64,000 bases of DNA, from the NCBI GenBank assembly GCA_964405335.1, contig CAYONP010000005.1, forward strand, positions 9,202 to 73,201, in the 5' to 3' direction. This DNA is from an uncultured Fimbriimonadaceae bacterium. GTDB lineage: Bacteria > Armatimonadota > UBA10988. The position numbers were made by a program, and so were the translations under genes. Positions 6,363 through 50,384 of this stretch are shown in pieces (within the stretch, counting starts at the first letter, position 1; each line of letters opens with the position of its first letter). The notes under the pieces were generated by a model, which had not been told where the DNA came from, ran no database searches, and saw only the letters and a program-made list of their open reading frames with translations.

Positions 6363-6427
6363 CGCCGTCTCCTTCCGCCGCCGTCCCGCCGCTCTGCCTT
6401 GGCCACCGCGCCGCGCGATCCTCCCCG

Positions 6428-18472: not shown

Positions 18473-18504
18473 GTCACCACGCTCCCGGACGATCTGGATG
18501 GCGC

Positions 18505-21500
18505 TCAGCGGACGACGAGAATCCGCGTCACACGGCTGACCGCGCCGTTGGGCGACAACACCTCGGCCTCGAGGCGATAAACACCGTGCGGCACCGGCCG
18601 GCCATGCGCGTCGCGGCCATCCCATTGGAGGCTGACGACCCGCCCGGCGGACAGGTTCCGCGCCACCGCGTCGACCGCCTGGCCGCCCAGACCGCGCACC
18701 GTCACGTTGACCAGGCCCGGCTCGCTCAGGTTCAGCCGGATGCGCGTCACGCCACCGCGGCCGGGAGCCGCCTCGAGGTTGGCAATCTCCGAGCGCGCCA
18801 GCCGACCGAGCCGCGCGACGAGCTCGAAGCGCCGCTCCTCGCCCGCCCGGCCGGGCGTGTAGACATAGCTGCTGCGGGTGTTCAGCAAGACCGTCGTCTG
18901 GCTCTGCAGGTCGCGCAGCTCGACGATCCAGCCGGGCGGCGCCTGGCGGCCGAACGACGGCCAGCTCAGCGTCACCGCCGCGCCGTCGCGGCTGGTCACG
19001 CTGGCCTGCCAGACCTCCTCGGCCGGACCGGCCGGCCGCAGTTCGCCGGCCAGGCGGGTCGGCCCATCGCGCAGGAACGACCACTCGACCGCCGGCGCCG
19101 CACCCGCTTCAGGCGGCGTCTCGATGGCCAGCGTCTCGGTCAGGCTGCTGCTCAGCCCGAACAGGTTGCCCGCGTCGACTCCGCTCTCGCTGCTCGCCGT
19201 CAAGCCGACCGTCCAGCTCCCCTCTTCCTGCCGCGCCCTCGACCGGCTGACGCCGCCGAGCGGCTCGGGCACGACCAGACTGACGCCGTCACGCAGCGCC
19301 TTGAGCCACAGCCCGGCCTGCGTCGGCAGGGCCGGCAGCAGCGACTCGAAGCCCGGTCGCGTGGTGTCGAAGATGAGCAGTGGAGTGAGTCGGCCGCGCG
19401 GATAGGTCCAGCCGTAGGGCAGCACCGTGCTGGTCCACAGCTCCTGGTCGGCCAGCGTGCCGACGCGCTGCTCATCGACCCGCACTTCGATCGCCTCCAG
19501 GTCCCAGACCAGCGCGTCGAAGAACGGGTTGGCCATCTGGTTCCAGCCCATCTGGAGCGGCAGCTCGTATGGACCCGGTCGTCGCAGGTCGCCGAGGAAG
19601 CGGATCCGTTGCGGTTCGGGTGAGAGCGCCCAGACGCCGTGGCCGGAAGGCAGGATCAGCCGGCCGGCGAGCGACTCGTACCGCTCGGTCTCGGGATTGA
19701 AGCGCAACACCTGCAACGGTCCGCGACCGGTCAGGAGCTGGATGCCCTGCTGGTTCAGGTCGATTGGCAGGCCGAAGAAGCTCGGCCCGGCCGGCAGGTT
19801 GAGGTCGGCAAAGGCGCGCACCTCGAGCGTGACCGGATCGAGCGGCACATCCTGCACCATCACCTGCAGCTCGTGCCGGCCTGGGTCGCGGCTGGTCACC
19901 CGGATGACGAACTGCCCGTCGCGATCGCTCGGCCCGCCGAGCGAGAGCACGTCGACCTGGCCGGCGCCGCTCCCACCCAGCACCCGCAGATCGGGCGGCG
20001 AGCCGATGATCGGTTGATCGAGCGCATTGCGCAGGGTCACCTGAATGGCCGCCTGCTCGGTCCCATCGCCGGCGATCTGCTCGGGCTGGAGGCCCACCTT
20101 GGAGCGCAGCGGGTCGATCACGCTCGACGGGGCAAAGGCCAGCCGGGGCCGGTCGTCGAGCAGTACATCGACCACCTTGACGCCGACCATGAAGGCGACC
20201 GGCTCACCCAGGCTCTCGATGAACGCCGTCGTCTTCCCGTCGGCGTCGGTCGGCTCGACCGGGTCGAAGATCCGCACCATCGGCGCCGCGTCGGGGTTGA
20301 CGAACACATCGACGAAGGTATGCGACAGGCCGGTGACCGGCGCATCGCGATCGTCGCGGACGAAGATGTTGAGCATGAACCGCTGCCCGACCTCGGCCGG
20401 CAGCACCAGCGGATCGACCACGATGCGCGAGTTGCTTGGGTCGATCACCGGCCCGTCGTCGGGCGGCTCGCGGAACTCGGCGGTGGGCTTCTGGGTCAGC
20501 GGCTGGCCGACGTTGCGCACCTCGACGGTGAAGGTGACCGGCTCATCGGAGCTGAGAAAACCGCGCGTGATGCCGGCCGAGTCGGTCACGGTGGTCGGCT
20601 GCTGCACCGTCACCACCCCCTGGCCCGGCGGCTGCGGGAGGATCTCGAAGTCACTTCCGGGCAGGCCGGGGATCGGGTTGCTGAACCGGTCGAGCGCGGT
20701 GATCCGGACGGTCGTCTGGCTCACCCCGTCGGCATCCTGCACCAGCGGGTTGACCACCACCAGGCTGCGGTCGCGATCGAGCGGGCCGGGTAGGATGTTG
20801 AACAGATTGCTGGTCGCTTCGAACGGCCCGACGCCGAACACCTGCGGCAGAGTCGCCTTCAGCGAGTAGCCGTCGCCGGACCGGCGGAGGAGGAGATTCG
20901 TGAAGCGCGCGGTGCCGCGGTTCAGGTCCGCGCTCAGGTCGCCGAACAGCGTGGCGCCGGTCGGATTGTCGGACAGGCCGACGATCAACGACTGGCCGCT
21001 GAGCGGGACCAGGCGGCCCGCGGCGTCGAACAGACTGACCGATGGCGCGGGGTCAAACGTATCGCCGGCGACGGTGTTGCCCTGCAGCGTGACGAACTGA
21101 AGCTGGGTCGGCGGGCCGGTGACCAGTGTGTTGCCGCCGAACTCCGAGGTACCGTCGGCGCCGATGGTCGCCGTGCTGGTCAGAAAGTCGCCCGGGTCGA
21201 GGCTGCCCCGCGGGACGGTGAACCGGAAGCGGTTGGTCGTGTCGGTGCCCTGGTTCAGACCGTTGAACGGGTTGGGGTAGCTGCCGGTGCCCGAGTCGCT
21301 GTCGTCGACCGAACCCTCGAGCTGCGTGCCGACGAAGCTGATGCCGCCGCCGAACCCGGTGCCCGGCGCCTCGTAGAGGCTGACCGCCGAGCCGGGCCGG
21401 GCGAACCCGGCGACGATCAAGTCGGTGCCGGCAACCACCGCGAAGTCGATCACCGGGAAGTTGAGCAGGTTGTTCGCCCCGGTGTCGGCGTCGCCGGGAT

Positions 21501-23748
21501 CGTTGCGCGTGGTGCCGTTCGGGTTCTGCGTCCCGCCGTCGAGGTTGATGTTCAGCAGGTTGTTGCCGCTAACCAGGTTGCGCAGGAAGACATTGCTCAC
21601 CCCGGCGTCGTTGGCGCCGTAGATGCCGCTACCGCTGTTGTTGCCGATCAAGTTGCCGCTGCCCGCGGCGGTCCCGCCGATCAGGTTCCGGTTCGCGCCA
21701 TTGCCGAGCAGAATGCCGTGCTGCCCGTTGCCGCGCGGGGTCTGCCGGTCGCCGGCCAGGCCGATCACGTTGCCGCTGATGGTGTTGCCGACGGCAACCG
21801 GCTCAAGCAGCCGGATGCCGTCGCGGCCGTTGCCCGAAATGCAGTTCCCGCGCACCTGGTTGCCGGCGGCGCCACCGGCGAGGTGTACGCCTTCGTCGGC
21901 GTTCGGCAGCACATTGTTGAAGGCGCCGTCGAGGCCGATCGAGTTGCCGGTGATCAGGTTGTCGTTGGCGCCGATCACCTCGACGCCGATCCGATTGCCG
22001 CTGATCACGTTGAACTGGCCCGCGCCGGTGCCGCCGATGGTGTTGTTGTTCGGCCCATTGAAGATGCGCACGCCGGCGAACTGGTTGCCCAGCGCGGCGG
22101 TGCCCCCGACGTTGGTGCCGATGAAGTTGCCCTGCAGCAGGTTGTTGTTCGAGTTATCGGTGATCGAGACGCCGAACCCGTCATTGCCGCCGATCACCGA
22201 GTTGAGCACGTTGACGTTTTGTGTGTTGAGCAGGTGTACGCCGTTCCCGAGGTTTGGGAAAGCGCTCGAGCCACCCGTGTTGGTCCCGATGAAGTTGCCG
22301 TCGAGACTTCCGCCGTCGTGGCCGTTGATCAGGATGCCGCTCGCCCGGTTGGCGCTGATGGTGCTGTTCGTGATGGTCAGACCCGAACCGCCTGCGGCGC
22401 CGACGCCCAGGCCGTCGTTCGGCAGCGGCGCGGTGCCGCCGGTGGCCATGCCGACCGTCGAGTCGGTGATCGACGGGTTGACCACGCTGTCGAAGAACAG
22501 ACCGTTCGAGTTGTTGCCGCTGACCGTCGAGTTTGAGATGGTGACGTTGCTGCTGTTCGCCACTCGGACCCCGTCGCCGCCGTTGGGCACGGCGCCGGTG
22601 CCGGCCAGGTTGGTGCCCAGCCGGCTGGTGTTGATGGTCAGGCTGAAGCCGTTGTCCATGAACACGCCGGTGCCGGTGTTGCCGCTGATGGTCGAGTTGG
22701 TGATGGTCACCTGACCCGAGTCCTGCAGCGCCACGCCCTCGCCGTTGTTCGGCAGCGCCGCGTCGGTGGTGCCGTTGGTGCCGATCCGGCTGTCGTTGAT
22801 CGCGATGGTCGAGGTGGAGCTGAACCTGACCCCGGGAGCGCTGTTGCCGCTGACAGTCGAGTTGGTGATGGTCACGTTGCCGGCGTTCTGGATCAGCAGC
22901 CCGCCGGTGTCGTTGGCGATGCCCGCCGTGCCAGCGGCGTTGGTGCCGAGCTTGCTGTTCTGGATGGTCAGGATCGACGAGCCGTCGCCTTCGATGCCGC
23001 GCCCACCGTTGCCGCTGATCACCGAGTTGGTGATGGTCGTGGTGAAGGTGTTCTGGATCCTAATCCCGCCGGCCGCGTTGCCCTCGTCGCTGGTCCCGGC
23101 GCGGTTGGTGCCGATCCGCGCGTTGATGATGTCGTTGCCGTTGCCGGCGTTGACGATCAGCGCTCCGAACTGACCGTTGCGCGAGAGCACCAGCCCCTCA
23201 TTGGCACCCGGCCCACCGAGGTTGTTGTTCGCCGCGCCATTGAACAGCATCACGCCGTTGATGGCGTTGGTCTCGACGATCACCGTCCCGCCCGGACCGG
23301 GCCGGACACCGCTGAACACGTTGATGATATCGTTGCCGTCGGAGCCGTTGATCACCAGCCCGTTGCCCTGGAAGTTGGCGATGGCAATACCGCTCACGAC
23401 GTTGTTGTCGGCGGCCAGGTGCAAGCCGTCGCCGGTCCCCGCCGCGGCGCCGTTGAGGATGATCAGCGGCTCACCCGAGAAGCCCGGCTGGCTCTGGCCG
23501 TCGATCGTCAGCGGGTCGTTGATCTGAGGTAGTGGCGAGAGCAGGTTGAAGAACTGCGTGCCGGTGCCGACGCTGAACGTGATCATGTCGGCGCCGGTGT
23601 TGGCGTTGGCGCTGATGATCGCCTCGCGCAACGACCCGCCGCCGGCGTCGTTGGTGTTGGTCACCACGAAGTTCGCTGCACCGGCGGGTAGAGCAGCCGC
23701 CAGCAGCAGCACGGCGCAGCGGCGAACGAGGCGGGTCCCATCCAACAT
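18505..23748 (-). CDS. giant secreted right-handed parallel beta-helix repeat protein with CSLREA-type N-terminus, Big-like middle region and FlgD-Ig-like C-terminal domain (1747 aa)
   Basis: Signal peptide MLDGTRLVRRCAVLLLAAALPAGAA, then VVTNTNDAGGGSLREAIISANA (CSLREA motif). There are more than 25 PbH1-like repeats (…ITNSTISGN…). C-terminus WDGRDAHGRPVPHGVYRLEAEV (FlgD Ig-like). An alternative start 15 codons upstream (23793) is possible. Confidence 0.75.
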   Translation of the reverse strand: MLDGTRLVRRCAVLLLAAALPAGAANFVVTNTNDAGGGSLREAIISANANTGADMITFSVGTGTQFFNLLSPLPQINDPLTIDGQSQPGFSGEPLIILNGAAAGTGDGLHLAADNNVVSGIAIANFQGNGLVINGSDGNDIINVFSGVRPGPGGTVIVETNAINGVMLFNGAANNNLGGPGANEGLVLSRNGQFGALIVNAGNGNDIINARIGTNRAGTSDEGNAAGGIRIQNTFTTTITNSVISGNGGRGIEGDGSSILTIQNSKLGTNAAGTAGIANDTGGLLIQNAGNVTITNSTVSGNSAPGVRFSSTSTIAINDSRIGTNGTTDAALPNNGEGVALQDSGQVTITNSTISGNTGTGVFMDNGFSLTINTSRLGTNLAGTGAVPNGGDGVRVANSSNVTISNSTVSGNNSNGLFFDSVVNPSITDSTVGMATGGTAPLPNDGLGVGAAGGSGLTITNSTISANRASGILINGHDGGSLDGNFIGTNTGGSSAFPNLGNGVHLLNTQNVNVLNSVIGGNDGFGVSITDNSNNNLLQGNFIGTNVGGTAALGNQFAGVRIFNGPNNNTIGGTGAGQFNVISGNRIGVEVIGANDNLITGNSIGLDGAFNNVLPNADEGVHLAGGAAGNQVRGNCISGNGRDGIRLLEPVAVGNTISGNVIGLAGDRQTPRGNGQHGILLGNGANRNLIGGTAAGSGNLIGNNSGSGIYGANDAGVSNVFLRNLVSGNNLLNINLDGGTQNPNGTTRNDPGDADTGANNLLNFPVIDFAVVAGTDLIVAGFARPGSAVSLYEAPGTGFGGGISFVGTQLEGSVDDSDSGTGSYPNPFNGLNQGTDTTNRFRFTVPRGSLDPGDFLTSTATIGADGTSEFGGNTLVTGPPTQLQFVTLQGNTVAGDTFDPAPSVSLFDAAGRLVPLSGQSLIVGLSDNPTGATLFGDLSADLNRGTARFTNLLLRRSGDGYSLKATLPQVFGVGPFEATSNLFNILPGPLDRDRSLVVVNPLVQDADGVSQTTVRITALDRFSNPIPGLPGSDFEILPQPPGQGVVTVQQPTTVTDSAGITRGFLSSDEPVTFTVEVRNVGQPLTQKPTAEFREPPDDGPVIDPSNSRIVVDPLVLPAEVGQRFMLNIFVRDDRDAPVTGLSHTFVDVFVNPDAAPMVRIFDPVEPTDADGKTTAFIESLGEPVAFMVGVKVVDVLLDDRPRLAFAPSSVIDPLRSKVGLQPEQIAGDGTEQAAIQVTLRNALDQPIIGSPPDLRVLGGSGAGQVDVLSLGGPSDRDGQFVIRVTSRDPGRHELQVMVQDVPLDPVTLEVRAFADLNLPAGPSFFGLPIDLNQQGIQLLTGRGPLQVLRFNPETERYESLAGRLILPSGHGVWALSPEPQRIRFLGDLRRPGPYELPLQMGWNQMANPFFDALVWDLEAIEVRVDEQRVGTLADQELWTSTVLPYGWTYPRGRLTPLLIFDTTRPGFESLLPALPTQAGLWLKALRDGVSLVVPEPLGGVSRSRARQEEGSWTVGLTASSESGVDAGNLFGLSSSLTETLAIETPPEAGAAPAVEWSFLRDGPTRLAGELRPAGPAEEVWQASVTSRDGAAVTLSWPSFGRQAPPGWIVELRDLQSQTTVLLNTRSSYVYTPGRAGEERRFELVARLGRLARSEIANLEAAPGRGGVTRIRLNLSEPGLVNVTVRGLGGQAVDAVARNLSAGRVVSLQWDGRDAHGRPVPHGVYRLEAEVLSPNGAVSRVTRILVVR

Positions 23749-23864
23749 GGCCTCTCCCCGGGGCGGCGCTCCCCTCGACGCCCGACGCGCCACCCATACA
23801 AGGAGTATAGCCCCAAGGGCGAAGCAACGGTAACGGCTGCACCCGTCGTGGGTCGGAGTCCCTC

Positions 23865-31945: not shown

Positions 31946-34777
31946 TCACGGTGCGAGCGAATAGACCCCGCCGGCGACCGTTTCGAGGCTTACCAGCCCG
32001 CCGTCGGGCCGGCGCACGCGGCACGGCCCGCCGCGGTCGCTGCGGATGACCGCACCGGCCAGACGCCCGTCGCGCCAGGCCAGGTCGACCTCGAACCCGC
32101 CGCGCGCGCGCAGGCCGCGGACTTCGCCCGTCGGCCAGGTCGACGGCAGCGCCGGCAGCAGCCGGATCTCGCCCAACTGGCTCTGGACCAGCAGCTCGCA
32201 GACCGCCGCGGTGGCGCCGAAGTTGCCGTCGATCTGGAAGATGTGCGGCGGGTGGAGGTCGAACAGGTTGGCCTCGGTGCTCTTGGCCAGCAGGTTGAGC
32301 AGCCCCTCGGCGGCCCGGTCGCCCTCGCCCAGGCGGGCCCAGAAAGCGCAGATCCAGGCCTGGCTCCAGCCGGTGTGCCCGCCGCCGTGTGCCAACCGGC
32401 GCTCCAGGCTCCGCCGAGCGGCGGCCAGCAGCGCCTCGTTGCCCGGCCGCAGCAGCTCGTCGCCGGGGTGCAGGGCAAACAGGTGCGAGAGGTGCCGGTG
32501 GCCCGGCTCCGGCTCGTCGAAGTCCTCCGGCCACTCCTGCAACTGGCCGTGCCGGCCAATCCGCATCGGCGTCAGCCGCGCACGGGCGGCGGCTAGCTCG
32601 GCGGCAAGATCCGGCTCGATGTCCAGCACGCGCGCCGCCTCGAGCACATGGTCGAACAGGCTGCCGATCAGTTGCTGGTCCATGGTCGGACCGAGGCAGA
32701 GGTTGGCCTGCGCGCCGTCGGCCGTGCGGAAGCTGTTCTCGGGCGAGACGCTCGGCCCGCCGCGCAGCAGCCCAGTGCGCGGATCCTCGACCGTCCAGTC
32801 GAGACAGAACTCGGCCGCGCCACGCAAGATGGGCCAGGCAAAGCGGCGCAGCCAGGCCTCGTCGCGGGTGAACTCGTAGTGGTCCCACAGGTGCTCGCAG
32901 AGCCACACCCCGCCGGTCGGCCAGCAGCCCCAGCCGACGCCCCAGCCGGGCGCGGTGTAGCCCCACACGTTGGTGATGGTGTGCGCGGTCCAGCCCCGCG
33001 CGCCGTACATCGTCCGCGCCGTCCGGCCGCCCGGCTCGACCAGGCTGGCGATCAGCTCGAACAGCGGCTCGGCGCAGTCGCTCAGGTTGGCCGTTTCGGC
33101 CGGCCAGTAGTTCATCTGCAGGTTGATGTTCAGGTGGTAATCGCTGTGCCAGGCCGGCCGCAGCTCGTGGCACCAGAGGCCCTGTAGGTTGGCCGGCAGG
33201 CTGCCCGGCCGTGACGAGGCGAGCAGCAGGTAGCGGCCGTACTGCGCATGGAGCGCGACCAACCCCGGATCATCGCCGCCGGCACGCACCGCGGCGAGGC
33301 GTTCATCGGTCGGCAACGCGTCCTGGGCGGAGTGGCCGAGCTCGAGGTGGAAGCGGTCCATCGCCGCCTGATGCTCGGCCACGGCCGGGTTGCGCAGCGC
33401 CTGATAGGCCTTGGCCGCGGCGCGGTCGACTTGCCCCTGCGCCGCGGCGGCCGGCTCGGCCTCGCGAAAGCCCGTCGCCGCGGCGATCACGATGGTCGCC
33501 GCATCGGCGCCGTCGACCACCAGCGTGGCGCCCTCGGCGCGCAGCGTGCCGCCCTCGGGGACGATCCGCGCCCGGGCGGCGAAGCGCATCCCCGCCCCGC
33601 CGTCGCAGGCGCCGTCGAGGGTGAGGGTGTCGCCCGCCGCGCCGGCCGTCGCATCCGCCTCGCGCGACAGACCGGCGGCGAAGGTGAGTCGCCCCGGCCG
33701 ATCGCAACTCAGTCGCAGCACCAGCACCCCGTCGGGCGCCGAGGCGAACAGCTCGCGGGTGAACCGCGCCCCGCCGGCGAGATACTCGACCCGCGCCAGG
33801 CCGCGCCGCAGGTCGAGCGTGCGGACGTAGTCGTCGACCCGTTCGGGTTGGTCGGCGAAGGTGAGGGTCAGGTCACCGAGGGTCTGGAATGTGGTGTGAT
33901 AGACCCCGTCAAACCCGCCGCCGAGGTTGGTCAAGTGCTGCTGCGCCAGGCCTTGCGCCTCGGTATAGCGGCCGTCGAGCAGCAGCGCGCGGATCTCCGG
34001 CAGATGCTCGAGCGCCGCCGGGTTGTCGGCCTCGGCCGGCCCGCCCGACCAGAGGCTGTCCTCGTTGAGCTGCAGTCGCTCGATTTCGAGCCCGCCGTGG
34101 GGCATCGCCCCCAGCCGACCGTTGCCGACCGGCAGCGCGGCGAACCAGTCCTCGGCCGGGGCGCGGTACCACAGCGTCAGTGGCTCCGCCGGCGGGCGCT
34201 GTCGGCCGGCGACGATGGTCCGCGGCCGGCCCGCCGGCCGGCCCGCCGCCGCGCGATACTGCTCCGCGGCCATGGCCAACTCTCCTTGCGCGAGTGACGC
34301 CCACCGCGGGTCGTCGCCGAGCCGGAACTGCCACTCGCCCGCCAGCTCCAGCTCGCCGCGCGGGCCGACCAGCCGCAGCGGCCCGGCGGTGATGCCGCCC
34401 GAGCCGCCGGCATCGTAGACCCGCACGGCAATCAGGTTGTCCTCGCCGAACCGCCACCCGGCCGCCGGCACGCGATACTCACGCTGCGCCTGCCAGGCCG
34501 TCCGCGCGTCGGGCGGCATCGTCCCCGTGGCGCCGACCAGCGCACCATTGACGTAGGTCTCGTCGCAGTCATCGATCTGGCCGAGCCGGAGGGTCAGGTC
34601 GGCGCCGGCCCAGTCGGCCGGCAGGTGGACGAAGCAGCGGTACCAGGCGAAGCCGTCATGGCTGCGCTGTGCGGCCGGCAGCACCTGGCTCCAGTCGCCG
34701 GGCACCGGCACCAGCGACCAGTCGGGTCCGGCGAGCAGGATGCAGAGGGCAAGGGTGGTCATCGCGGCACGATGCAC
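31946..34777 (-). CDS. glycoside hydrolase family 95-like (alpha-L-fucosidase type) with N-terminal sugar-binding jelly-roll domain
   Basis: [39 protein letters not shown] and the (alpha/alpha)6 region are GH95 hallmarks. The N-terminal GH2-like sugar-binding domain (FAWYRCFV…NGALVG). Confidence 0.75.
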
Positions 34778-36328: not shown

Positions 36329-37299
36329 TCCGCTCCCTCCTGGCCCTGCTGCTGGCCGCCGGCGCCGCCGGCGCCGACGACCTGGCGCTGCTCCGCCGCG
36401 CGGTCGAGGCCGACGCGGCGCGGCCGCGCATCGGGCGGCAGAGCATCGAGGTCTATCCCACGGAGGCGGCGGTCCGCAGCGAGGTCGAGGTCGCCTTCGA
36501 CGGCGCCGGACATGCCCGGCGCGAGCACCGCAGCGGCCCGAGCGCTGGGCTGGTGGTGATCAGTGAGGGCCGTTACGAGTGGCTGCGCGGGCCCGGCGCG
36601 ACGGCCTGGGTGCGGACCATCTCGAGCCGCGCCGGCGATGTCGATCTCCGTGCCGGGCAGCTCGACCGGCTGGCTTCGAACTACACGATCAGCATCAGCC
36701 GCGGCGGCGAGGTGGCCGGGCGGGCGACGCAACGCCTCGACCTCACTCCGCGCCGCGAGGGCAACCCGTCGCGGCGACTGTGGGTCGACGCGGCCACCGG
36801 CCTGACGCTCCGCTGCGAAATCCGCAACCGAGCCGGCGAGCTGGTCCAGCGCTGGAGCTACGCCAGCCTGCGCTATGCCGCGCCCGACCCGGCCACGGTC
36901 CGCCTGCCGGCCGACGCCGAACGCTACACCGGCGCCGCGCCGGGCAGCCTCGAACAGGTCGCCAGCCAGGCCGAACTCGAACGGCGGCTCGGCCATCCGG
37001 TGCTCCGGCCGCGCAACCTGCCCGCCGGCTATATCGCCAGCGGCTGGTTTGTCCGGGCTTGCCGCGAGGGTGGCTTCACGCCGGTGACGACTTTCTCGGA
37101 CGGGCTTAACGCGGTCACCCTGATGGAAACTCGCGGCCGTGGCAGGGGACGCGGCCGCCGCTGGCGCGGTGGGCGATGTCAGATCCAGCCGAGCCGGCTG
37201 CAGGTCGTCGTCCGGGTCGGGGTCGACGGGCACGAGGCGGTGATTGTCGGCGACCATGCGCCGGCCGGGCTCGAGGCCATGGCGCGGAGTTTGGAGTGA
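36325..37299 (+). CDS. MucB/RseB-like periplasmic sigma-E regulatory protein (LolA-fold), tentative
   Basis: ATGA overlap with the anti-sigma stop. Signal peptide MIRSLLALLLAAGAAGA. Weak but patterned similarity to RseB (…D(R/L)AGELVQRW… and a C-terminal helix). The upstream 107 aa of the ORF are Arg/Gly junk. Confidence 0.45.
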   Translation: MIRSLLALLLAAGAAGADDLALLRRAVEADAARPRIGRQSIEVYPTEAAVRSEVEVAFDGAGHARREHRSGPSAGLVVISEGRYEWLRGPGATAWVRTISSRAGDVDLRAGQLDRLASNYTISISRGGEVAGRATQRLDLTPRREGNPSRRLWVDAATGLTLRCEIRNRAGELVQRWSYASLRYAAPDPATVRLPADAERYTGAAPGSLEQVASQAELERRLGHPVLRPRNLPAGYIASGWFVRACREGGFTPVTTFSDGLNAVTLMETRGRGRGRGRRWRGGRCQIQPSRLQVVVRVGVDGHEAVIVGDHAPAGLEAMARSLE

Positions 37300-37304
37300 C
37301 CACC

Positions 37305-37907
37305 ATGCACCGGCGGAGCTTCTCACCGCGAGCCTTCGTCTCGTTGGTCGCCGCCGTCCAACTGGTGCTGCTGGCTGCCAGCGGGCTGGTGCTCTTGGTC
37401 GCGCCGGCGTGCGGAGTGGCGGCCCGCATGGGCTGGGCGGTCGGCGGGCTGAGCAAGGAGCAGTGGCAGGCGGTCCACGTCAACACCGGGCTGGTCTTCC
37501 TGATCATCGGCACCTGGCATCTGGTCTTCAACTGGAAGGCGCTGCTGCACTACCTGCGCCGGCGGCTCGGCGCGGAACGACGTTGGCGGCTCGAGCCGCT
37601 CTATGCCGGGCTGTTCGGCCTGCTGCTGGTGCTCGGCCCGGCCACCGACATGGCGCCCTTCGCGCAGGTGACCGCCCTGTCCGAACGGCTCTCCGCGGCG
37701 TGGACCGCCCGCGTCTCGACGTCTGGCGGGCAGAGCTGGGGACAGATGAACCTGGCCGAGCTCTGCGAGGCCGCCGAGCTGAGCCTGCCGGCCGTGCTCG
37801 ACCGCCTGGCCGGCCTCGGACTGGCGGCCGACGACACCACCTCGGTGCGCGCCGTGGCCGACGCGCTCGGCTTGCCGCCCAGCCAGCTGGCCGAGGCGTT
37901 GCGGTAA
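37305..37907 (+). CDS. DUF4405-like small membrane protein with C-terminal helix-hairpin-like region
   Basis: Start at internal Met MHRRSFSPRAFVSLVAAVQLVLLA (TM1) with GGAG RBS. The second helix has conserved His/Trp (LVFLIIGTWHLVFNW). Confidence 0.45.
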   Translation: MHRRSFSPRAFVSLVAAVQLVLLAASGLVLLVAPACGVAARMGWAVGGLSKEQWQAVHVNTGLVFLIIGTWHLVFNWKALLHYLRRRLGAERRWRLEPLYAGLFGLLLVLGPATDMAPFAQVTALSERLSAAWTARVSTSGGQSWGQMNLAELCEAAELSLPAVLDRLAGLGLAADDTTSVRAVADALGLPPSQLAEALR

Positions 37908-40260: not shown

Positions 40261-41538
40261 GTGATGGCAAACGAGCCGACCCTGTCGCGGCGGCAGGTGA
40301 TCACATCGATGGTCGGCGCGGCGATGGCGCCGATGGTGCTGACCAGCGCCAAGGGCCGCGCGGCGCCGGGTGATCGTATCACCATGGGCTGCATCGGCAT
40401 CGGCAACATGGGCAGCGGCAACACGGGCGCCTTTCTGGGCCGCGGGCAGGTGCAGGTGGTGGCCGTCTGCGATGTCCGCAAGTGGGTCCGCGACGACTGG
40501 CAGCAGCGGGTCAACCAGCGCTATGCCGAGGCCGCCGGGCGCGGTGAGTATGCCGGCTGCACGGCCTATGCCGATTTCCGCGAGCTGCTCGCGCGCGACG
40601 ACATCGACGCGGTGATGATCGCCACGCCCGACCACTGGCACGCGCTGGTCGCCATCGAAGCGGCCAAGGCGGGCAAGGACATCTACTGCGAAAAGCCGAT
40701 GACCCTGACCGTCCGCGAGGCCCGCGCGCTGGTCGACGCGGTGCGGCGCTACGGGCGGGTCTTCCAGACCGGCAGCCAGCAGCGCTCGTCGCCCGAGTTT
40801 CACCGCGCCTGCGAACTGGTGCGTAACGGTCGGATCGGCAAGGTCGAGCAGGTCAACGTCAATGTCGGCGGGCCGTCGCTGCCGAGGAGCTATGTCGAGG
40901 AACCGATTCCCGAGGGCTTCGACTGGGACATGTGGCTCGGCCCGGCGCCTTATGCGCCGCACAACGGCGAGCGCTGCAGCGGCGACTACGGCGGCGGCTG
41001 GCGCCAGGTGCGCGACTACTCGGGCGGCATGATGACCGACTGGGGCGCGCACCACTTCGATATCTGCCAGTGGGGCCTGGGCATGGACGGCTCGGGCCCG
41101 GTCGAGGTCCACCCGCCCGACGGCAAGGACTACGACAAGCTCACTTACATCTATGCGAACGGCGTCCGGGCGGTCCACCAGGGTGGCGGCAACGGCGTGC
41201 TGTTCATCGGCACCGAGGGCACCGTCGAGGTCAATCGCGGCCACCTGGCGACCAACCCGCCCGAGCTGATGCACGAGGTCATCGGCCCGAGCGAGACCCG
41301 GCTCTACCAGAGCCGCGACCACCACGGCGACTTCCTCGGCTGCATCCGCACCCGGCAGCGGCCGATCTGCGATGTCGCCGTCGGGGCGAGCAGTGTGACC
41401 ATGTGCCACCTGGGCAACATCGCCTGGTGGACCGGCCGCTCGTTCCGCTGGGACCCGCAGACCGAGCAGATCGTGGATGATGGCGAGGCGGCGCGCTGGC
41501 TCGATCGGCCGCGGCGCGACCCGTGGCGCCTGGCGTAG
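40261..41538 (+). CDS. Gfo/Idh/MocA family oxidoreductase, Tat-exported
   Basis: LSRRQVITSMVGAAMAP Tat signal. ITMGCIGIGNMG Rossmann. DIDAVMIATPDHWHA…EKPM core, paralogous to 45789..47027. Confidence 0.8.
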   Translation: MMANEPTLSRRQVITSMVGAAMAPMVLTSAKGRAAPGDRITMGCIGIGNMGSGNTGAFLGRGQVQVVAVCDVRKWVRDDWQQRVNQRYAEAAGRGEYAGCTAYADFRELLARDDIDAVMIATPDHWHALVAIEAAKAGKDIYCEKPMTLTVREARALVDAVRRYGRVFQTGSQQRSSPEFHRACELVRNGRIGKVEQVNVNVGGPSLPRSYVEEPIPEGFDWDMWLGPAPYAPHNGERCSGDYGGGWRQVRDYSGGMMTDWGAHHFDICQWGLGMDGSGPVEVHPPDGKDYDKLTYIYANGVRAVHQGGGNGVLFIGTEGTVEVNRGHLATNPPELMHEVIGPSETRLYQSRDHHGDFLGCIRTRQRPICDVAVGASSVTMCHLGNIAWWTGRSFRWDPQTEQIVDDGEAARWLDRPRRDPWRLA

Positions 41539-41547
41539 GAGGTTGGC

Positions 41548-43953
41548 ATGAAGCGGTTCGTTATCCTGGCGGTTCTGGCGCTCGGCACGGCCCACGGCAT
41601 CACCCCCGAGACGCAGGCGACAGTCGATGCCCTGTGCGGGCGGGCCGACGCGCCGGCCGACTACCCGGCGGCGGTGCAGCAGGTGCTCGACGCGCTGGTG
41701 ACCGACTTCGCCGGCGACGACATCAACACGCAGTTCACCAGCCGCACCGCCTGGGAGCAGGTCGGCATGCACGCGGCGCGGCCCGGCGCCGAGGCCGAGC
41801 GGCTCGCCTTCTGCCAGGTCAGCCTGTCCAAGCTGACCCCCGGCGTGCCGACCTGGAGCCAGGTCTGGATCCTGCGCCAGCTTCAGAACGTCGGCGGCGC
41901 CGAGGTGGTGCCGCGGCTGGCCGAGCTGCTCGGCAGTCAGGACGAACTGATCGCCGAGCACGCCCTGCTGGCGCTGGCCAACAACCCCTCGGCCGAGGCC
42001 GCCGGCGCGCTGCGCGATGCGCTCGCCGCGGCGACCGACTCCGCCGGCCGCATCGCCCTGATCAACGCGCTCGGCTTTCGCGCCGATGCCGCGGCCATGC
42101 CCGCGCTGACCGGCCTGCTCGGCGACGGCGACGAGCAGGTGATCATCGCCGCCGCCGACGCGCTCGGGCGGATCGGCACCGCTGACGCCGCCACCGCTCT
42201 GGCCGCTGCGCGGGGCAATGTGGCCGGCGAGGCGGTCCGCCGCATCGACGACGCCACGCTGAAGTGCGCCGACAAGCTGGCGGCCGGCGGCGCCCGTGAC
42301 CAGGCGGTGGCCATCTATCGCGCGGCGTTCGGAGTCGATCGCGACCTGCGCACCCGTTCGGCGGCGCTGCGCGGCCTGGGGCTGACCCTCGGCGGCGAGG
42401 CCGCCCAGCTCGTGATCGAGGTACTCGGCGGCGATGAGGCCGAGCTGCAGCCGGTGGCCGGCCGGCTGGTGGTCGATATCCCCGGCGAGGCGGCGACCCG
42501 CGCCTTTGCCGATCAACTGCCCGGCCTGCAGCCGCCGATGCAGGTGGTCCTGCTCGGCGCGCTGGCCGAGCGCGGCGACCCGGCGGCGCTGCCGCGCATC
42601 GCCGAGCAGTTCGAGTGCGCCAACGAAGAGGTCGCCGTCGCCGCGGTCGACGCCGGCGCCGCTTTGGGCAACGAGACCTTGGTGCCCTCGTTGGTGGCCC
42701 TGGCCACCGGCGAGCAGCCGCGCGTGCGCGACGCGGCGCGCGGGGCGCTGACCCGGCTCCGCGGCGCGGCGGTCGATCCCGCGATTGCCGCGGCGCTCGA
42801 CGGCGCGCCGAACGCGACGGTCACCATGCTGGCCACCGTGCTGGCCGAGCGCCATGCCTCGGCGGCGGTGCCGGCGCTGATCGCCACCGCCGGCCGGCTG
42901 ACCGACAATCGCACCCTCTCGGCCGTCTACCGCGCGATGGTGCAGGCCGCGGGCGAGGCGGAGCGCGACGCCGTGCGCGACGCGCTGCGGACCGCTCTCG
43001 GCGGCGACGCGGCGCGGCAGCGCGGGGCTCTGGCCGGCTACGAGGTCTGGCCGAACGACGCGCCGATGGACGAGCTGCTGGCGCTCAGCCGCGGCGCCGA
43101 GGACGAAACCGTGCGCACGCTGGCGCTGCAGCAGTATCTGCGCATGTTCGGCATGTCGGAGCGCACGGCGGCAGAGCGGCTGGCGCGCTACCAGGAGCTG
43201 CTGGCCGCGACCCAGAGCGAGGACGAGGCGGCGGTAGTGCTCGAGGCGATCGGCGAGGTGCCGACCATCGAGGCGCTGCGCGCGGCCGAGGCGCGCCTGC
43301 CGGCCACGGCGGCGGCGCAGGCGGTGATCAACATCGCTCGCGAGCTGGCCATGACGCACCGCGAGGCGGCCACCACGGCGCTCGAGGCGATTGCCGCCAA
43401 CGCGCAGGACGGGGCGGTCAAGGCCCAGGCCGGGGCGGTGCTCGAGCAGCTCAAGGCGCTCGGCGCATACCTCACCGACTGGCTCTTCGCCGGGCCCTAC
43501 ACGCAGGGCAACCTGAATAACCTCCAGCTCTACGACACGGTCTTTGATCCCGAGAAGCCCGAGGCCGAGGTTACCTGGCAGCGGCTCGAGTGGGCCGTTG
43601 ACGGCAACGAGCCGTGGCGGGTGAACCTCGATCAGAGCCCCTGGAACGGCAACAACCGGGCCTGCTACGCGCGCACGCGGGTGTTTGCCCCGGCGGCCGG
43701 GCCGGTGCAGTTCGAGCTGGGCAGCGACGACGGCGCGAAAGTGTGGCTGAACGGGACCGTGGTTCACGAGCAGAATGTCAACCGGGCTCACGCCACCGGC
43801 TCGGACAAGTTCACCGCCGAGCTGCGGCAGGGCTGGAACGTGGTCATGATCAAGATCACCCAGGGCGGCGGCCAGTGGGCGCTCAGCCTGCGCATCGTGA
43901 CGCCCGAGGGCACGGTGATCGACGGCCTCCGCGTACAGGCCGAAGAGGAATGA
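41548..43953 (+). CDS. HEAT-repeat protein with C-terminal beta-sandwich (DUF1080/PA14-like) domain, secreted
   Basis: Signal peptide MKRFVILAVLALGTAHG. Many ALxxLG/AAxALG HEAT-like helices. C-terminal FELGSDDGAKVWLNGTVVHEQ jelly-roll. Confidence 0.65.
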   Translation: MKRFVILAVLALGTAHGITPETQATVDALCGRADAPADYPAAVQQVLDALVTDFAGDDINTQFTSRTAWEQVGMHAARPGAEAERLAFCQVSLSKLTPGVPTWSQVWILRQLQNVGGAEVVPRLAELLGSQDELIAEHALLALANNPSAEAAGALRDALAAATDSAGRIALINALGFRADAAAMPALTGLLGDGDEQVIIAAADALGRIGTADAATALAAARGNVAGEAVRRIDDATLKCADKLAAGGARDQAVAIYRAAFGVDRDLRTRSAALRGLGLTLGGEAAQLVIEVLGGDEAELQPVAGRLVVDIPGEAATRAFADQLPGLQPPMQVVLLGALAERGDPAALPRIAEQFECANEEVAVAAVDAGAALGNETLVPSLVALATGEQPRVRDAARGALTRLRGAAVDPAIAAALDGAPNATVTMLATVLAERHASAAVPALIATAGRLTDNRTLSAVYRAMVQAAGEAERDAVRDALRTALGGDAARQRGALAGYEVWPNDAPMDELLALSRGAEDETVRTLALQQYLRMFGMSERTAAERLARYQELLAATQSEDEAAVVLEAIGEVPTIEALRAAEARLPATAAAQAVINIARELAMTHREAATTALEAIAANAQDGAVKAQAGAVLEQLKALGAYLTDWLFAGPYTQGNLNNLQLYDTVFDPEKPEAEVTWQRLEWAVDGNEPWRVNLDQSPWNGNNRACYARTRVFAPAAGPVQFELGSDDGAKVWLNGTVVHEQNVNRAHATGSDKFTAELRQGWNVVMIKITQGGGQWALSLRIVTPEGTVIDGLRVQAEEE

Positions 43954-43954
43954 G

Positions 43955-44818
43955 ATGAAGCGACGTGAGATGCTCATGAACCTGGGTGCAGCGATGGTCG
44001 GACTCTCGGCGGGGCTCGCGGCGAGGGCCGCGGGGCCGCGCCGGCGGATCCTCTTCTACACCAAGTCGGCGGGCTTTCAGCACTCGGTGATCACCCGCCA
44101 GAACGGCGAGCTGGGCCACGCCGAGAAGGTCCTCATGCAGATGGGGAACGAGTACAACGTCGAAGTCGTGTGCAGCAAGGATGGCGGGCTGTTCACCGCC
44201 GACTCGCTCAAGACCTTCGACGCGCTCGCCTTCTACACCACCGGCGACCTGACCCAGACCGGCACCGACGGCCAGCCGGGGTTGCCCGACGGCGGCAAGC
44301 AACTGCTGCTCGACACGGTGGCCGCGGGCAAGCCGGTGGTCGGCTTCCACTGCGCCACCGACACGTTCCACAGCCAGGGCGACCAGGTCGATCCGTTCAT
44401 CACCCTGATCGGCGGCGAGTTCGCCGGACACGGCGCGCAGCAGGAGGCGACCCAGCGAGTGGTCGACCACTCGCTGCCCGGCCTCGACGAACTCGGCGCC
44501 AGCTTCCGGCTGCACGAGGAGTGGTACGCCTTCCGCAACATCAACCCCGACATCCGCGTGCTGCTGGTCAACGAGACCGAAGGCATGACCGGCGGCGACT
44601 ATGAGGGTAAGCCGCCGTTCCCCTCGACCTGGGTGCGGATGCACGGCGAAGGGCGCGTCGCCTACACCAGCATGGGCCACCGCGAGGATGTCTGGACCAA
44701 CCCGATCTTTCAGGGCGTCACGGTCGGCCTGTTCGCCTTCGCCTTCGGCGAGGCCGACCTCGACCTGACGCCGAACCTGAAGCGAGTCTGCCCGGACTTC
44801 ACGGCGGTGGCGGGGTAG
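43955..44818 (+). CDS. ThuA-family (trehalose-utilisation / glutamine amidotransferase-like) protein, Tat signal
   Basis: RREMLMNLGAAMVGLSAGLAARA, then ILFYTKSAGFQHSVI…VVGFHCATDTF…YTSMGHRE typical of ThuA. It starts 1 nt after the HEAT gene stop. Confidence 0.75.
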   Translation: MKRREMLMNLGAAMVGLSAGLAARAAGPRRRILFYTKSAGFQHSVITRQNGELGHAEKVLMQMGNEYNVEVVCSKDGGLFTADSLKTFDALAFYTTGDLTQTGTDGQPGLPDGGKQLLLDTVAAGKPVVGFHCATDTFHSQGDQVDPFITLIGGEFAGHGAQQEATQRVVDHSLPGLDELGASFRLHEEWYAFRNINPDIRVLLVNETEGMTGGDYEGKPPFPSTWVRMHGEGRVAYTSMGHREDVWTNPIFQGVTVGLFAFAFGEADLDLTPNLKRVCPDFTAVAG

Positions 44819-44819
44819 C

Positions 44820-45127
44820 GCCGGGTAGGGCCGCCTCGCCGAGGCGGCCGCCATCGACCGCCGGTAGCGCCCGAACGGACCGCCGGCGTCCCCGCCGGCA
44901 TTGGCCCGTTCGGCGAACGGGCCCTACCCGAGCCCGAACAGACCGCCGGCGTCCCCGCCCCGTTGAGCAGCCCTGGTAGGGGCAGCCCTTGTGGCTGCCC
45001 GCGGTTCGATAAACCCGCTCCAGCAGCGGGCGACCACAAGGGTCGCCCCTACCGGATCGGCGTTCGGTGCCGTTCCATAGCACGTGCGACCCGCCGGCAG
45101 CGGCCCGTTCGGCGAACGGGCCCTACC
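44820..45127. repeat. cluster of REP-like palindromic intergenic repeats between convergent genes
   Basis: Two copies of GCCCGAAC(G/A)GACCGCCGGCGTCCCCGCC (about 44870 and 44932). Two identical copies of the self-palindrome GGCCCGTTCGGCGAACGGGCCCTACCC (about 44904 and 45103). Hairpin GGCCGCCTCG-C-CGAGGCGGCC (about 44829-44849). A 27-nt-arm imperfect inverted repeat GTAGGGGCAGCCCTTGTGGCTGCCCGC … GCGGGCGACCACAAGGGTCGCCCCTAC (about 44975-45052). Confidence 0.6.
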
Positions 45128-45436
45128 CTACGCCGGCAGCTCCGGCGCGGCGGTCGGTGCCGGCCTGGCTCGCGCCAGCAGCCCAAAGCCGACCACCAGG
45201 AGGAGGTACAGGCTGGCCGGCGGCACCGTCCAAATCAGGTACAGAGCGCTCATGTCGCCGTCGCGGATGCCGCCGGTCATTGATGCGATGACGATGCCGT
45301 AGCTGGGCACGGTCAGAATCAGCGGCAACGCCGCCGCCCAGCGCCAGCCGCGGCGCAACACCGCCAGGGCGATGACCTGCAGCAACGGGTAGCCGGCGAA
45401 GACGAGGAAGCTCACCAGGAACATGACGCCGCCCAT
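45128..45436 (-). CDS. small 3-TM membrane protein, unknown family (paralog B)
   Basis: Start at internal Met MGGVMFLVSFLVFAGYPLLQV with GGAG RBS. Paralogous to 45475..45792 (shared PLLQVxALxVLRRGWR…motif). The upstream part of the ORF is Arg-rich junk. Confidence 0.5.
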   Translation of the reverse strand: MGGVMFLVSFLVFAGYPLLQVIALAVLRRGWRWAAALPLILTVPSYGIVIASMTGGIRDGDMSALYLIWTVPPASLYLLLVVGFGLLARARPAPTAAPELPA

Positions 45437-45474
45437 CGAGCATCTCCGGCCGACGCCGATGCGCGGCGGTGCTG

Positions 45475-45792
45475 CTATTCTGTGGCGTCCGCCGGCGGCG
45501 CGTCCGCCCGCCGCGCCGCGATGAGGCCTCCGATCAGCACGATCAGCAGGTAGACCGCGCCGATCGGCCCGAACAACAGCGCCCAGATGCCGCCGAGATT
45601 GTCCATCGAGCGCGGCTTGCTCCAACTGGCCAGCAGCGCGGCATAGGCCAGCACGCCCGGCAGCAGCGGGATGAACGCCGCGGTGCGCCAACCGCCGCGG
45701 AGCACGAACAGGGTCACCGCCTGCAGCACCGGCCAGGCGCAGATCAGCACCGCGGCGAGGTAGACGATAGGCGACGTGTCCTGGTCGCTCAT
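45475..45792 (-). CDS. small 3-TM membrane protein, unknown family (paralog A)
   Basis: MSDQDTSPIVYLAAVLICAWPVLQAVTLFVLRGGWR… The ATG overlaps the TGA of the upstream Gfo/Idh/MocA gene (ATGA). Confidence 0.55.
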   Translation of the reverse strand: MSDQDTSPIVYLAAVLICAWPVLQAVTLFVLRGGWRTAAFIPLLPGVLAYAALLASWSKPRSMDNLGGIWALLFGPIGAVYLLIVLIGGLIAARRADAPPADATE

Positions 45793-47027
45793 GCCGGCAT
45801 GGTCCACGGTGCGCGGTAGTCGTAGCTCAGCATCGCGTTGGCCTCCGGGTCGTTGACGATCTGCTCGCTCTCCGCATTCCAGGTTATCTTGCGGCCCGTG
45901 CGGATCGCGAGGTTGCCGAGGTGGCAGACCGTCGCGCTGCGGTGGCCGATCTCCACATCGCAGATCGGCAGCTCGCGGCTGCGGATGCAGTCCATCCAGT
46001 TGCCCGTCTGGCTGCGCGAGCGGTAGAGCCGCACATCGCCCTCGCCGAGCGGCGTCTCGATGACCTCCGCCGGCTCCGAGGCGAGCTTGCCGCGGTTGAC
46101 CATGATCTTGCCGTCGCTGCCCTCGAAGGTCGTCCCGCCCGGCTGGCTGCTGCCGCACAGGACGGTCACGCCGTCGGGATACTCGTAGGTGCAGTCGAAC
46201 CGCCGCGGCACTTCGTACCAGCCGTCGGGGTGATACTCGGCGGTACCCTCGACCGCCAGCGGCCCGGCCGCATCCATGCCCAGTCCCCACTGGGCGATGT
46301 CGAGGTGGTGCGCGCCCCAGTTGGTCATCTGCCCGCCCGAGTAGGGCCAGAAGAAGCGGAAGTTGTAGTGTACCTGCTTGGCGTTGTAGGGCCGGTACGG
46401 CGCCGGGCCGAGCCACATGTCGTAGTTCAGCTCGGGCGGCGGATCGCCGTCGGGCACCGCCGGTCCCTCGAAGTTGACGCCGGGGATGCCGACGCGGACG
46501 GTGTGGACCCGGCCGATCCGCCCGCTGCGGACCAGCTCGCAGGCGGTGCGGAACTCGTTGGCCGAGCGCTGCTGGCTGCCGCACTGAAGGATCCGCCCGG
46601 TCGCGCGCGCGGCGGTGACCATCGCCCGGCCCTCGGCGACGGTGAGTGTCATCGGCTTCTCGCAGTAGACATCGAGCCCGGCGCGCATCGCCTCGATGCT
46701 CAGCTTGGCGTGCCAGTGGTCGGGCGTGGCGATGATCACCGCGTCGATCAGGCCCGACTCGAACAGCCGCCGATAGTCACCAAAGCCGGGCACCTCGCGC
46801 TCGGTCTTCTCGCGGACCAGCGTCTGCGCGGCGGCCAAGATGCTCGCATCGACGTCGCAGATGGCGGCGCAGTAGCGGGCCAGCCCATTGAGGTGCGACT
46901 TGCCCATGTTGCGCACGCCGATGAAGCCAAGGCGGAGGTCAACGTCGGCGGCCCATGCGCGGCGGGTGATGATGAACGGCAGCGCAACGGCGGCTTTGAG
47001 GATGTCGCGGCGGGACGCGGTTGGCAT
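45789..47027 (-). CDS. Gfo/Idh/MocA family oxidoreductase, Tat-exported
   Basis: SRRDILKAAVALPFIITRRAWA Tat signal. RLGFIGVRNMG Rossmann. DAVIIATPDHWHA…EKPM. GGGAG RBS. Confidence 0.8.
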   Translation of the reverse strand: MPTASRRDILKAAVALPFIITRRAWAADVDLRLGFIGVRNMGKSHLNGLARYCAAICDVDASILAAAQTLVREKTEREVPGFGDYRRLFESGLIDAVIIATPDHWHAKLSIEAMRAGLDVYCEKPMTLTVAEGRAMVTAARATGRILQCGSQQRSANEFRTACELVRSGRIGRVHTVRVGIPGVNFEGPAVPDGDPPPELNYDMWLGPAPYRPYNAKQVHYNFRFFWPYSGGQMTNWGAHHLDIAQWGLGMDAAGPLAVEGTAEYHPDGWYEVPRRFDCTYEYPDGVTVLCGSSQPGGTTFEGSDGKIMVNRGKLASEPAEVIETPLGEGDVRLYRSRSQTGNWMDCIRSRELPICDVEIGHRSATVCHLGNLAIRTGRKITWNAESEQIVNDPEANAMLSYDYRAPWTMPA

Positions 47028-49643: not shown

Positions 49644-50384
49644 TTGGCGCCGCCGGGTGGTAGCCACGCTCGACGGGAGGTGCGCTTGGCCCGGCTGTTC
49701 GACTGGTTCTTGCGCGGCGGACCGCTGATGTGGCTGCTGCTGGCCGCCTCCATCGCGGCGGTGGCCACCGCGGTCGAGCGCTGGCTCTGCTACCGCGCCG
49801 CCCTGCGCCGGCCTGAGGCGCTGCCGGCCGCCCTGCTCCGCGGCTGGCACAGCGCCGGTGCCGCCGGTCTCGCCGGCGCCGCGCAGCCGCACGGCAGCGC
49901 CGCGGTGGCCCTGGCGCGGACCGCCGCCGAAGTGGCCGAGCTCGACGCCGACCTGGCCGCCGACCGGCTGAGCTGCACGGCGGAGGCTCAGCTTGCGCGG
50001 CTGGCCGGCCCGCTGCGGTTGCTCGAGGCGATCTGCGTCGGCGGGCCGTTGCTCGGTCTGCTGGGCACGGTGATCGGCTGGTCGGGCGTGCTCGAGGCCG
50101 CCGCACGGCGGGGCTCGGCCGAGCTGAGCGCCATCGGCGGCGATATGTCGCGGGCGCTGATCACCACCGTCTTCGGCCTCATGGTCGGCCTCGAGGCGTG
50201 GCTGCTGGGGCAGATTCTGCAGGCCCGCTACGAGCGGCTCAAGGTGCCGATCCAGGCGCTGGTGCCGAGGCTCCTGACCATCCTGCGCGGGCAGGGCGAG
50301 GCACCGCCCGAGCCACCACCAGCCACCGAGCCGGCGCCGCCGGAGCCCGAGCCGCAGCCCGAGCCGGCAGAGGAGTACACATGA
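49644..50384 (+). CDS. exbB: MotA/TolQ/ExbB-family proton channel
   Basis: LFDWFLRGGPLMWLLLAASIAAVATAVERWL, then GPLLGLLGTVIGW and GGDMSRALITTVFGLMVGL, the canonical ExbB/TolQ helices. A TTG start at 49689 with GGGAGG RBS 5 nt upstream is an alternative. Confidence 0.7.
   Translation: MAPPGGSHARREVRLARLFDWFLRGGPLMWLLLAASIAAVATAVERWLCYRAALRRPEALPAALLRGWHSAGAAGLAGAAQPHGSAAVALARTAAEVAELDADLAADRLSCTAEAQLARLAGPLRLLEAICVGGPLLGLLGTVIGWSGVLEAAARRGSAELSAIGGDMSRALITTVFGLMVGLEAWLLGQILQARYERLKVPIQALVPRLLTILRGQGEAPPEPPPATEPAPPEPEPQPEPAEEYT

Follow-up and report, generated by a model that had tools for sequence, protein, structure and literature searches.

Two tandem three-helix membrane proteins of an undescribed family, encoded directly downstream of a Tat-signal Gfo/Idh/MocA oxidoreductase, may tether it to the membrane

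Why would the gene for a predicted exported sugar oxidoreductase run directly into two genes for small integral membrane proteins? The question is raised by a locus in a 64,000 nucleotide (nt) stretch of contig CAYONP010000005.1 from an uncultured Fimbriimonadaceae bacterium (this whole stretch is referred to as the window), where the gene for a Gfo/Idh/MocA oxidoreductase with a twin-arginine translocation (Tat) motif, OX, is followed by two paralogous genes, M1 and M2, whose products each have three transmembrane (3-TM) helices. Gfo/Idh/MocA enzymes hold NAD(P) tightly and perform hydride chemistry, and they contain no chain of one-electron cofactors. Exported members of the family also bind NAD(P) tightly, and they work without any partner in the membrane (PMC8121099). 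We find that M1 and M2 stem from a lineage-specific tandem duplication within a rare 3-TM domain family, and we favor, at a probability of about 0.4, the reading that they are a cofactor-free membrane tether for OX. A working partnership between OX and the M1/M2 pair is plausible.

OX, M1 and M2 form a real three-gene unit on the minus strand (Table 1). The preliminary description of this DNA had reported a Tat-motif enzyme whose stop codon overlaps the M1 start, and M2 placed 38 nt after M1 with its own ribosome binding site, and both claims were confirmed at the same coordinates. The overlap is made up of the OX TGA (45789-45791) and the M1 ATG (45790-45792), and the spacer between M1 and M2 contains a GGAG (45444-45447) located 7 nt before the M2 ATG. 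This layout, from OX through the overlap, M1, the spacer and M2 to the hairpin that follows, is exactly retained in contigs L001 to L004 and L095, and the three sequence variants that share it have diverged by a dS of up to about 0.3. The spacer has the same length in L001 and L095, with the GGAG kept in L001 and replaced by GGGG in L095, and an identical copy of the hairpin follows M2 in both. The region surrounding the hairpin (45040-45135) folds at -55.9 kcal/mol (z=-3.3), and the hairpin is likely the end of the transcript, though it has no U-tract; a simple terminator scan passed it over for lack of a T-run. A consensus promoter scan upstream of OX, which is uninformative for this kind of organism, gave no match. 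The convergent intergenic region between M2 and a ThuA-domain gene on the other strand (44819-45127) contains two strong GC-rich stem-loops without U-tracts (z=-3.3), of which the one adjoining M2 is also conserved among related contigs.

With a GC content of 72%, the window has many long chance open reading frames (ORFs), and M1 and M2 might themselves be spurious frames in GC-rich DNA. This reading is already refuted, and we assign it virtually no probability. GC at third codon positions (GC3) is 0.92 in the called frame of both M1 and M2, similar to OX, the ThuA gene and neighboring genes. The variants differ by no indels, their pairwise ratios of nonsynonymous to synonymous divergence (dN/dS) range over 0.05-0.22 in OX, 0.20-0.49 in M1 and 0.0-0.25 in M2, and the close relatives are 95% and 81% identical to M1 and 100% and 87% identical to M2. 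An AlphaFold2 model of M1 was confident (mean predicted local distance difference test score, pLDDT, 88.7) and consisted of an up-down three-helix bundle with helices at residues 8-30, 34-57 and 66-96. The searches also yielded 64 genuine homolog clusters and 62 metagenomic loci. M1 and M2 are genuine genes under purifying selection, and the preliminary description, whose reading depended on the conservation of these mini-proteins, was not refuted on this point: dN/dS was below 0.5, the frames were free of indels, and distant homologs exist.

M1 and M2 had been described as tandem 3-TM paralogs of about 40% identity. BLASTP aligned them with 43% identity over 49 amino acids (aa; E=7e-9), identity over the full length was 36%, hydropathy analysis gave three hydrophobic helices in each, and the two share P(V/L)LQ..L.VLR.GWR.AA. 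Neither protein contains histidine, and the sole cysteine, M1 C18, is not conserved. The family had not been recognized in the preliminary description, and no library names it: M1, M2 and their relatives gave nothing above noise against Pfam, NCBIfam, PHROGs, PADLOC and PDB sequences. Fold searches with the M1 model returned generic helix bundles only, with PceB (8q4h_C) as a weak Foldseek match. A holin identity was rejected, as the locus lacks any phage context and nothing in PHROGs matched.

Close relatives of M1 and M2 were found only in a few short metagenomic contigs, a word-indexed protein search yielded near-identical relatives only, and the pattern [LC]RGGWRTAA detected no M1-like gene in 185,579 species genomes. 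Six sequences were combined into a family profile, which had 67 matches at E<=1e-3 among 1.84 billion representative proteins, with only the clusters of M1 and M2 themselves below 1e-10. P0013, P0041 and P0044 were repeat artefacts and were removed from these matches. A profile from which M1, M2 and their close relatives were left out still recognized both proteins over their full length, with 66.7 bits for M1 and 78.0 for M2; the top score among 1000 shuffles was 14 bits. The 3-TM family is rare and undescribed, and is the only new element of the locus.

Members of the family are approximately 90-110 aa long, with the consensus VPxYxVLQxxALxRLRGGWRxAAxxPL...SNLWP...FxxPxAxLYL and a signature composed of Y-x3-Q, RGGWR, P and P-x4-YL. 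Five positions are near-invariant (Y20, Q24, R36, P42 and P76 in M1 numbering); all five are present in M2 and four in M1, which has W for Y20. The conserved sites are distributed over helix 1 (Y/W20 and Q24), the cytoplasmic loop (RGGWR), the start of helix 2 (P42) and helix 3 (P76-x4-YL). Most of the family also carries SNLWP in the outer loop between helices 2 and 3, in place of which M1 has MDNLGG and M2 has DGDMSA; the motif is also missing in a few relatives (P0007, P0012 and P0028). Its replacement in M1 and M2 fits a changed periplasmic partner, and relaxed constraint fits equally well. L144 is the sole other locus with two family copies (5995-6657 and 7956-8291), which are 1.3 kb apart and not in tandem. 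In P0045 (224 aa), the family domain follows without a break on the ~120 initial residues of a MalK/UgpC-like ABC ATPase. Gene calling or assembly has probably produced a chimera here, but a real fusion could also account for it.

The distribution of charges indicates how these proteins are likely to sit in the membrane. Arginine and lysine residues in the helix 1-2 loop and C-terminal tail, against those in the N-terminus and helix 2-3 loop, number 4 vs 2 in M1 and 5 vs 1 in M2, and M1, M2 and the family as a whole are predicted to have the N-terminus in the periplasm and the C-terminus in the cytoplasm. Two proteins of the same orientation would pair in parallel, and a dual-topology antiparallel M1/M2 pair is ruled out by the charge bias that both share. 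A fused form occurs in about a dozen representative proteins of 240-266 aa (about 12 of 64) and at 13 of the 62 metagenomic loci; here the three helices come after a signal peptide, an extra domain of ~100 residues and a long helix. These relatives confirm the orientation independently, because helix 1 must run from outside to inside when the signal peptide and the extra domain lie before it. The extra domain is an undescribed periplasmic beta-sandwich without a Pfam match and with the motifs YxRxxYxSDxPxRxQA, NPSPxYPAGxGEAxAW and IDExRV (carried by P0024, P0008, P0014, P0022 and others, and at L005 7480-7989). It always precedes the 3-TM domain or is encoded by the gene just upstream, and in L005 and L103 it has an ORF of its own immediately before the 3-TM gene. 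The gene order in these two loci, periplasmic module and then 3-TM protein, is the same as that of OX and M1.

OX itself is an ordinary member of a Tat-signal clade of Gfo/Idh/MocA sugar oxidoreductases. Its N-terminal NAD(P)-binding Rossmann domain matched PF01408 (E=1.4e-18, 68 bits, cut-off 24) and its C-terminal alpha/beta domain matched PF19051 (E=5.1e-37) and PF22725 (E=4.3e-9); domain searches found Gfo/Idh/MocA domains only, and no Fe-S, flavin or haem domain. The N-terminus, MPTASRRDILKAAVALPFIITRRAWA|AD, contains SRRDILK (S-R-R-x-I-L-K), then AAVALPFIIT and then an AxA site (AWA|A), and an RRxFL motif is present at the same position in 16 of 16 aligned homologs. At the level of motifs, OX is thus predicted to be exported through a Tat signal. 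It resembles Zymomonas glucose-fructose oxidoreductase (Gfo) and Bacteroides BT2158 in its two-domain fold family and its twin-arginine signal (PMC8121099). Its top NCBIfam match was the BT_2158 glycoside 3-dehydrogenase model (NF058561), at 129 bits and over residues 31-261 only; as the cut-off is 750 bits, OX was rejected as an equivalog of this type, from which it differs in this respect. Homologs from Planctomycetota align with OX from end to end. In one Planctomycetales metagenome-assembled genome (HKST-UBA46; L017, 2149 onward), an OX homolog is followed without a gap by a 225-aa ORF with three hydrophobic segments, which lies outside the M1/M2 family.

How could such an enzyme and two such membrane proteins work together? 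In the reading that we favor, translation would stop and restart at the ATGA and yield OX and M1 in a fixed ratio, M1 and M2 would assemble next to each other in the inner membrane, both oriented alike, and the pair would keep OX, once exported, on the membrane's outer face without taking any part in its hydride chemistry. The arrangement would copy in separate chains what the fused relatives have in one, with OX in the place of the signal peptide, beta-sandwich domain and long helix that precede the same three helices. We favor a tether because the coupling is conserved, with overlap, spacer and terminal hairpin laid out alike in the three variants, because OX and the M1/M2 pair share an envelope location, and because of the parallel with the fused and split beta-sandwich relatives. 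The SNLWP periplasmic loop is, in addition, exactly the part that has been replaced in M1 and M2.

A precedent for a tether of this kind is the PceA2B2 complex (PDB 8q4h), in which the cofactor-free 3-TM anchor RdhB/PceB, of ~100 aa, holds a Tat-exported enzyme through its outer-side helix 2-3 loop, and in which the anchor gene, like M1, lies immediately downstream of the gene for the catalytic subunit (PMC10624902). M1 and M2 differ from PceB in having no detectable sequence or significant fold relationship to it, and their partner is an NAD(P) enzyme with neither Fe-S clusters nor corrinoid, where that of PceB is a corrinoid/Fe-S reductive dehalogenase. There are also two paralogs here against one anchor in PceA2B2, and the association is limited to a narrow lineage. 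With no sequence or fold similarity, and a partner that has Gfo/Idh/MocA domains only, M1 and M2 were rejected as members of RdhB/PceB.

Several observations weigh against a tether. The genome collection contains hundreds of OX homologs, of which we examined the best 80 (36-61% identity; mostly Planctomycetota, with some Verrucomicrobiota, Armatimonadota and Tannerellaceae). No gene of the 3-TM family lay within 5 kb of any of these 80, and none of them was followed by a small membrane ORF that is conserved. Conversely, the DNA obtained for the 62 metagenomic family loci, 260 kb in total, contained no Gfo/Idh/MocA gene, and none adjoined a family gene in the contigs of other relatives that we examined, which brings the family loci covered to ~70. 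The co-occurrence of the mini-proteins with this Gfo/Idh/MocA clade that might have been expected from the preliminary description was thus not found, and the pairing of OX with M1/M2 is confined to one narrow lineage, as a recent acquisition there and not as a property of either family. End-to-end alignment of OX with its 16 closest partner-less homologs revealed no insertion or extension of its own. Only ~8 N-terminal residues and a loop of ~10 residues of M1 and M2 are exposed to the periplasm, and the most conserved motif of the family, RGGWR, lies on the cytoplasmic side, which suggests a core function of the family other than periplasmic docking. The relationship among the three variants is also too close for their kept gene order to prove selection for it. 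Literature searches found no membrane partner of Gfo-family enzymes, and none is mentioned for BT2158 or Gfo (PMC8121099).

These observations feed the main rival reading, that M1 and M2 are operon passengers which perform the family's own function, unconnected to OX. This function would probably be centred on the cytoplasmic RGGWR face and linked in some relatives to response-regulator genes, and the coupling would be the trace of a recent insertion, with duplication, behind OX; 4-nt overlaps are frequent in a genome as compact as this one, with its 72% GC. The zero counts in both directions and the lack of any sign of adaptation in OX are consistent with it, as are the unrelated contexts of other family genes, which lie next to EF-P and enoyl-CoA hydratase genes, an Hda gene, a cupin gene or a LysR regulator gene. 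Among 25 distinct groups with enough upstream DNA, four have a response-regulator (REC-domain) gene directly upstream, in the same orientation and with its end <200 nt before the 3-TM gene; a sigma-54 activator is encoded by one of the four, and in L008 a histidine kinase gene lies downstream. Part of the family may have a link to signalling. Against a passenger stand the overlap, spacer and single terminal hairpin kept in all variants, the location of both products at the cell envelope, and the order of periplasmic protein gene and 3-TM gene, which mirrors that of the fused and split relatives. We regard a passenger as somewhat unlikely, but nearly as likely as a tether because nothing outside the lineage links the two families.

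The preliminary description had also suggested an electron hand-off between OX and the mini-proteins, and this part did not fare well. With no histidine and no conserved cysteine in M1 or M2, a haem or iron-sulfur relay is very unlikely, and OX is of the NAD(P) type. In a variant of the idea, M1 and M2 would dock OX and create a quinone site where they meet it, in the way of PceB with PceA, so that sugar oxidation would feed the respiratory chain. It draws on the PceA2B2-like architecture, with a small cofactor-free 3-TM protein encoded downstream of a Tat-exported catalytic subunit (PMC10624902), on the weak Foldseek match to PceB, and on the re-oxidation route of the bound cofactor, which is unsettled in some exported Gfo-family enzymes (PMC8121099). 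M1 and M2 have no sequence similarity to PceB, however, OX has no domain with Fe-S, flavin or haem to wire electrons to a quinone, and OX homologs without a partner are the rule. We consider such a hand-off highly improbable. In a broader form, M1 and M2 would be a new cofactor-free dock at which the cofactor bound to OX is re-oxidised by the quinone pool at the membrane interface, and the 3-TM family would be a general dock for periplasmic modules; this is a long shot, and if true it would turn a Gfo/Idh/MocA enzyme into a respiratory dehydrogenase.

The genes around the locus bear on one further reading, in which M1 and M2 would form a six-helix heterodimer and, like a SemiSWEET dimer with its two three-helix bundles, convey either the substrate of OX or its product through the inner membrane. 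Like SemiSWEET/PQ-loop carriers, which work as dimers and have a link to sugar metabolism, M1 and M2 have ~100 aa, three helices and the N-terminus outside with the C-terminus inside, and tandem paralogs suggest a heterodimer. Polar residues are conserved within the membrane (Q24, Y/W20, and the N and W of SNLWP in relatives), and the neighborhood is one of periplasmic sugar oxidation, with genes for a second Tat-motif Gfo/Idh/MocA protein, ThuA and GH95. M1 and M2 differ from these carriers in their motifs, which sit mainly at the cytoplasmic face, and they were rejected as SemiSWEET/PQ-loop proteins, with no match to the MtN3_slv or PQ-loop Pfam models, no PDB sequence match and no fold match to a 1-3-2 helix bundle. 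The N/W motif is lost in both, other family loci are not sugar-related, and a beta-sandwich fusion would be atypical of such carriers. A conduit is improbable.

The second Gfo/Idh/MocA gene belongs to a convergent three-gene unit on the plus strand (40261-44818). Its product carries the twin-arginine motif SRRQVI, and the unit also encodes a HEAT-repeat protein of 801 aa, whose C-terminus is weakly PA14-like, and a ThuA-domain protein bearing an RREML signal. Judged from these sequences, the unit looks like a ThuAB-type periplasmic 3-keto-sugar module. The likeness of our locus to ThuA/ThuB-type modules lies in these genes just upstream on the other strand; it differs from them in that they form a separate operon, and the OX-M1-M2 unit itself has no ThuA gene. 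Nearby ORFs of 743, 534, 400 and 231 aa had no Pfam match. Further away on the minus strand (14099-23793) are two very long ORFs of 1661 and 1762 aa, with coding-like GC3 and an overlap of ~580 nt as listed.

Table 1. Coordinates of the three-gene unit, of other genes in the window, and of family loci with a REC gene on metagenomic contigs.
Feature	Position	Strand	Basis or remark
OX, 412-aa Gfo/Idh/MocA oxidoreductase	45789..47027	-	Pfam PF01408 + PF19051
Predicted Tat signal peptide of OX, MPTASRRDILKAAVALPFIITRRAWA	46950..47027	-	motif read from sequence
ATGA, OX stop codon overlapping M1 start codon	45789..45792	-	sequence; also in L001-L004 and L095
M1, 105-aa three-helix membrane protein	45475..45792	-	translation, homologs, profile, AlphaFold2 model
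M1-M2 spacer, 38 nt	45437..45474	-	sequence
M2, 102-aa paralog of M1	45128..45436	-	translation, BLASTP vs M1, profile
GC-rich hairpin GGGCCCGUUCGCCGAACGGGCC	45102..45123	-	4 nt past M2 stop; without U-tract
GH95 fucosidase-type hydrolase	31946-34777	-	
DUF4405 membrane protein	37176-37907	+	
MotA/ExbB-family protein	49644-50384	+	
REC-gene loci of the 3-TM family	L148 680-1747; L149 302-1357; L126 4463-5911; L157 3-638; also L142, L152		

If M1 and M2 do tether OX, a dedicated partner in the membrane would be on record for a Gfo/Idh/MocA enzyme for the first time, and the locus would provide a second, unrelated case of the PceB style, in which a small cofactor-free 3-TM anchor serves a Tat-exported enzyme. 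The practical value is modest, since the family is sparse and the oxidoreductase ordinary. Independently of a tether, this locus defines a rare bacterial membrane-domain family, with a sharp signature, a confident structural model and forms fused to a beta-sandwich domain.

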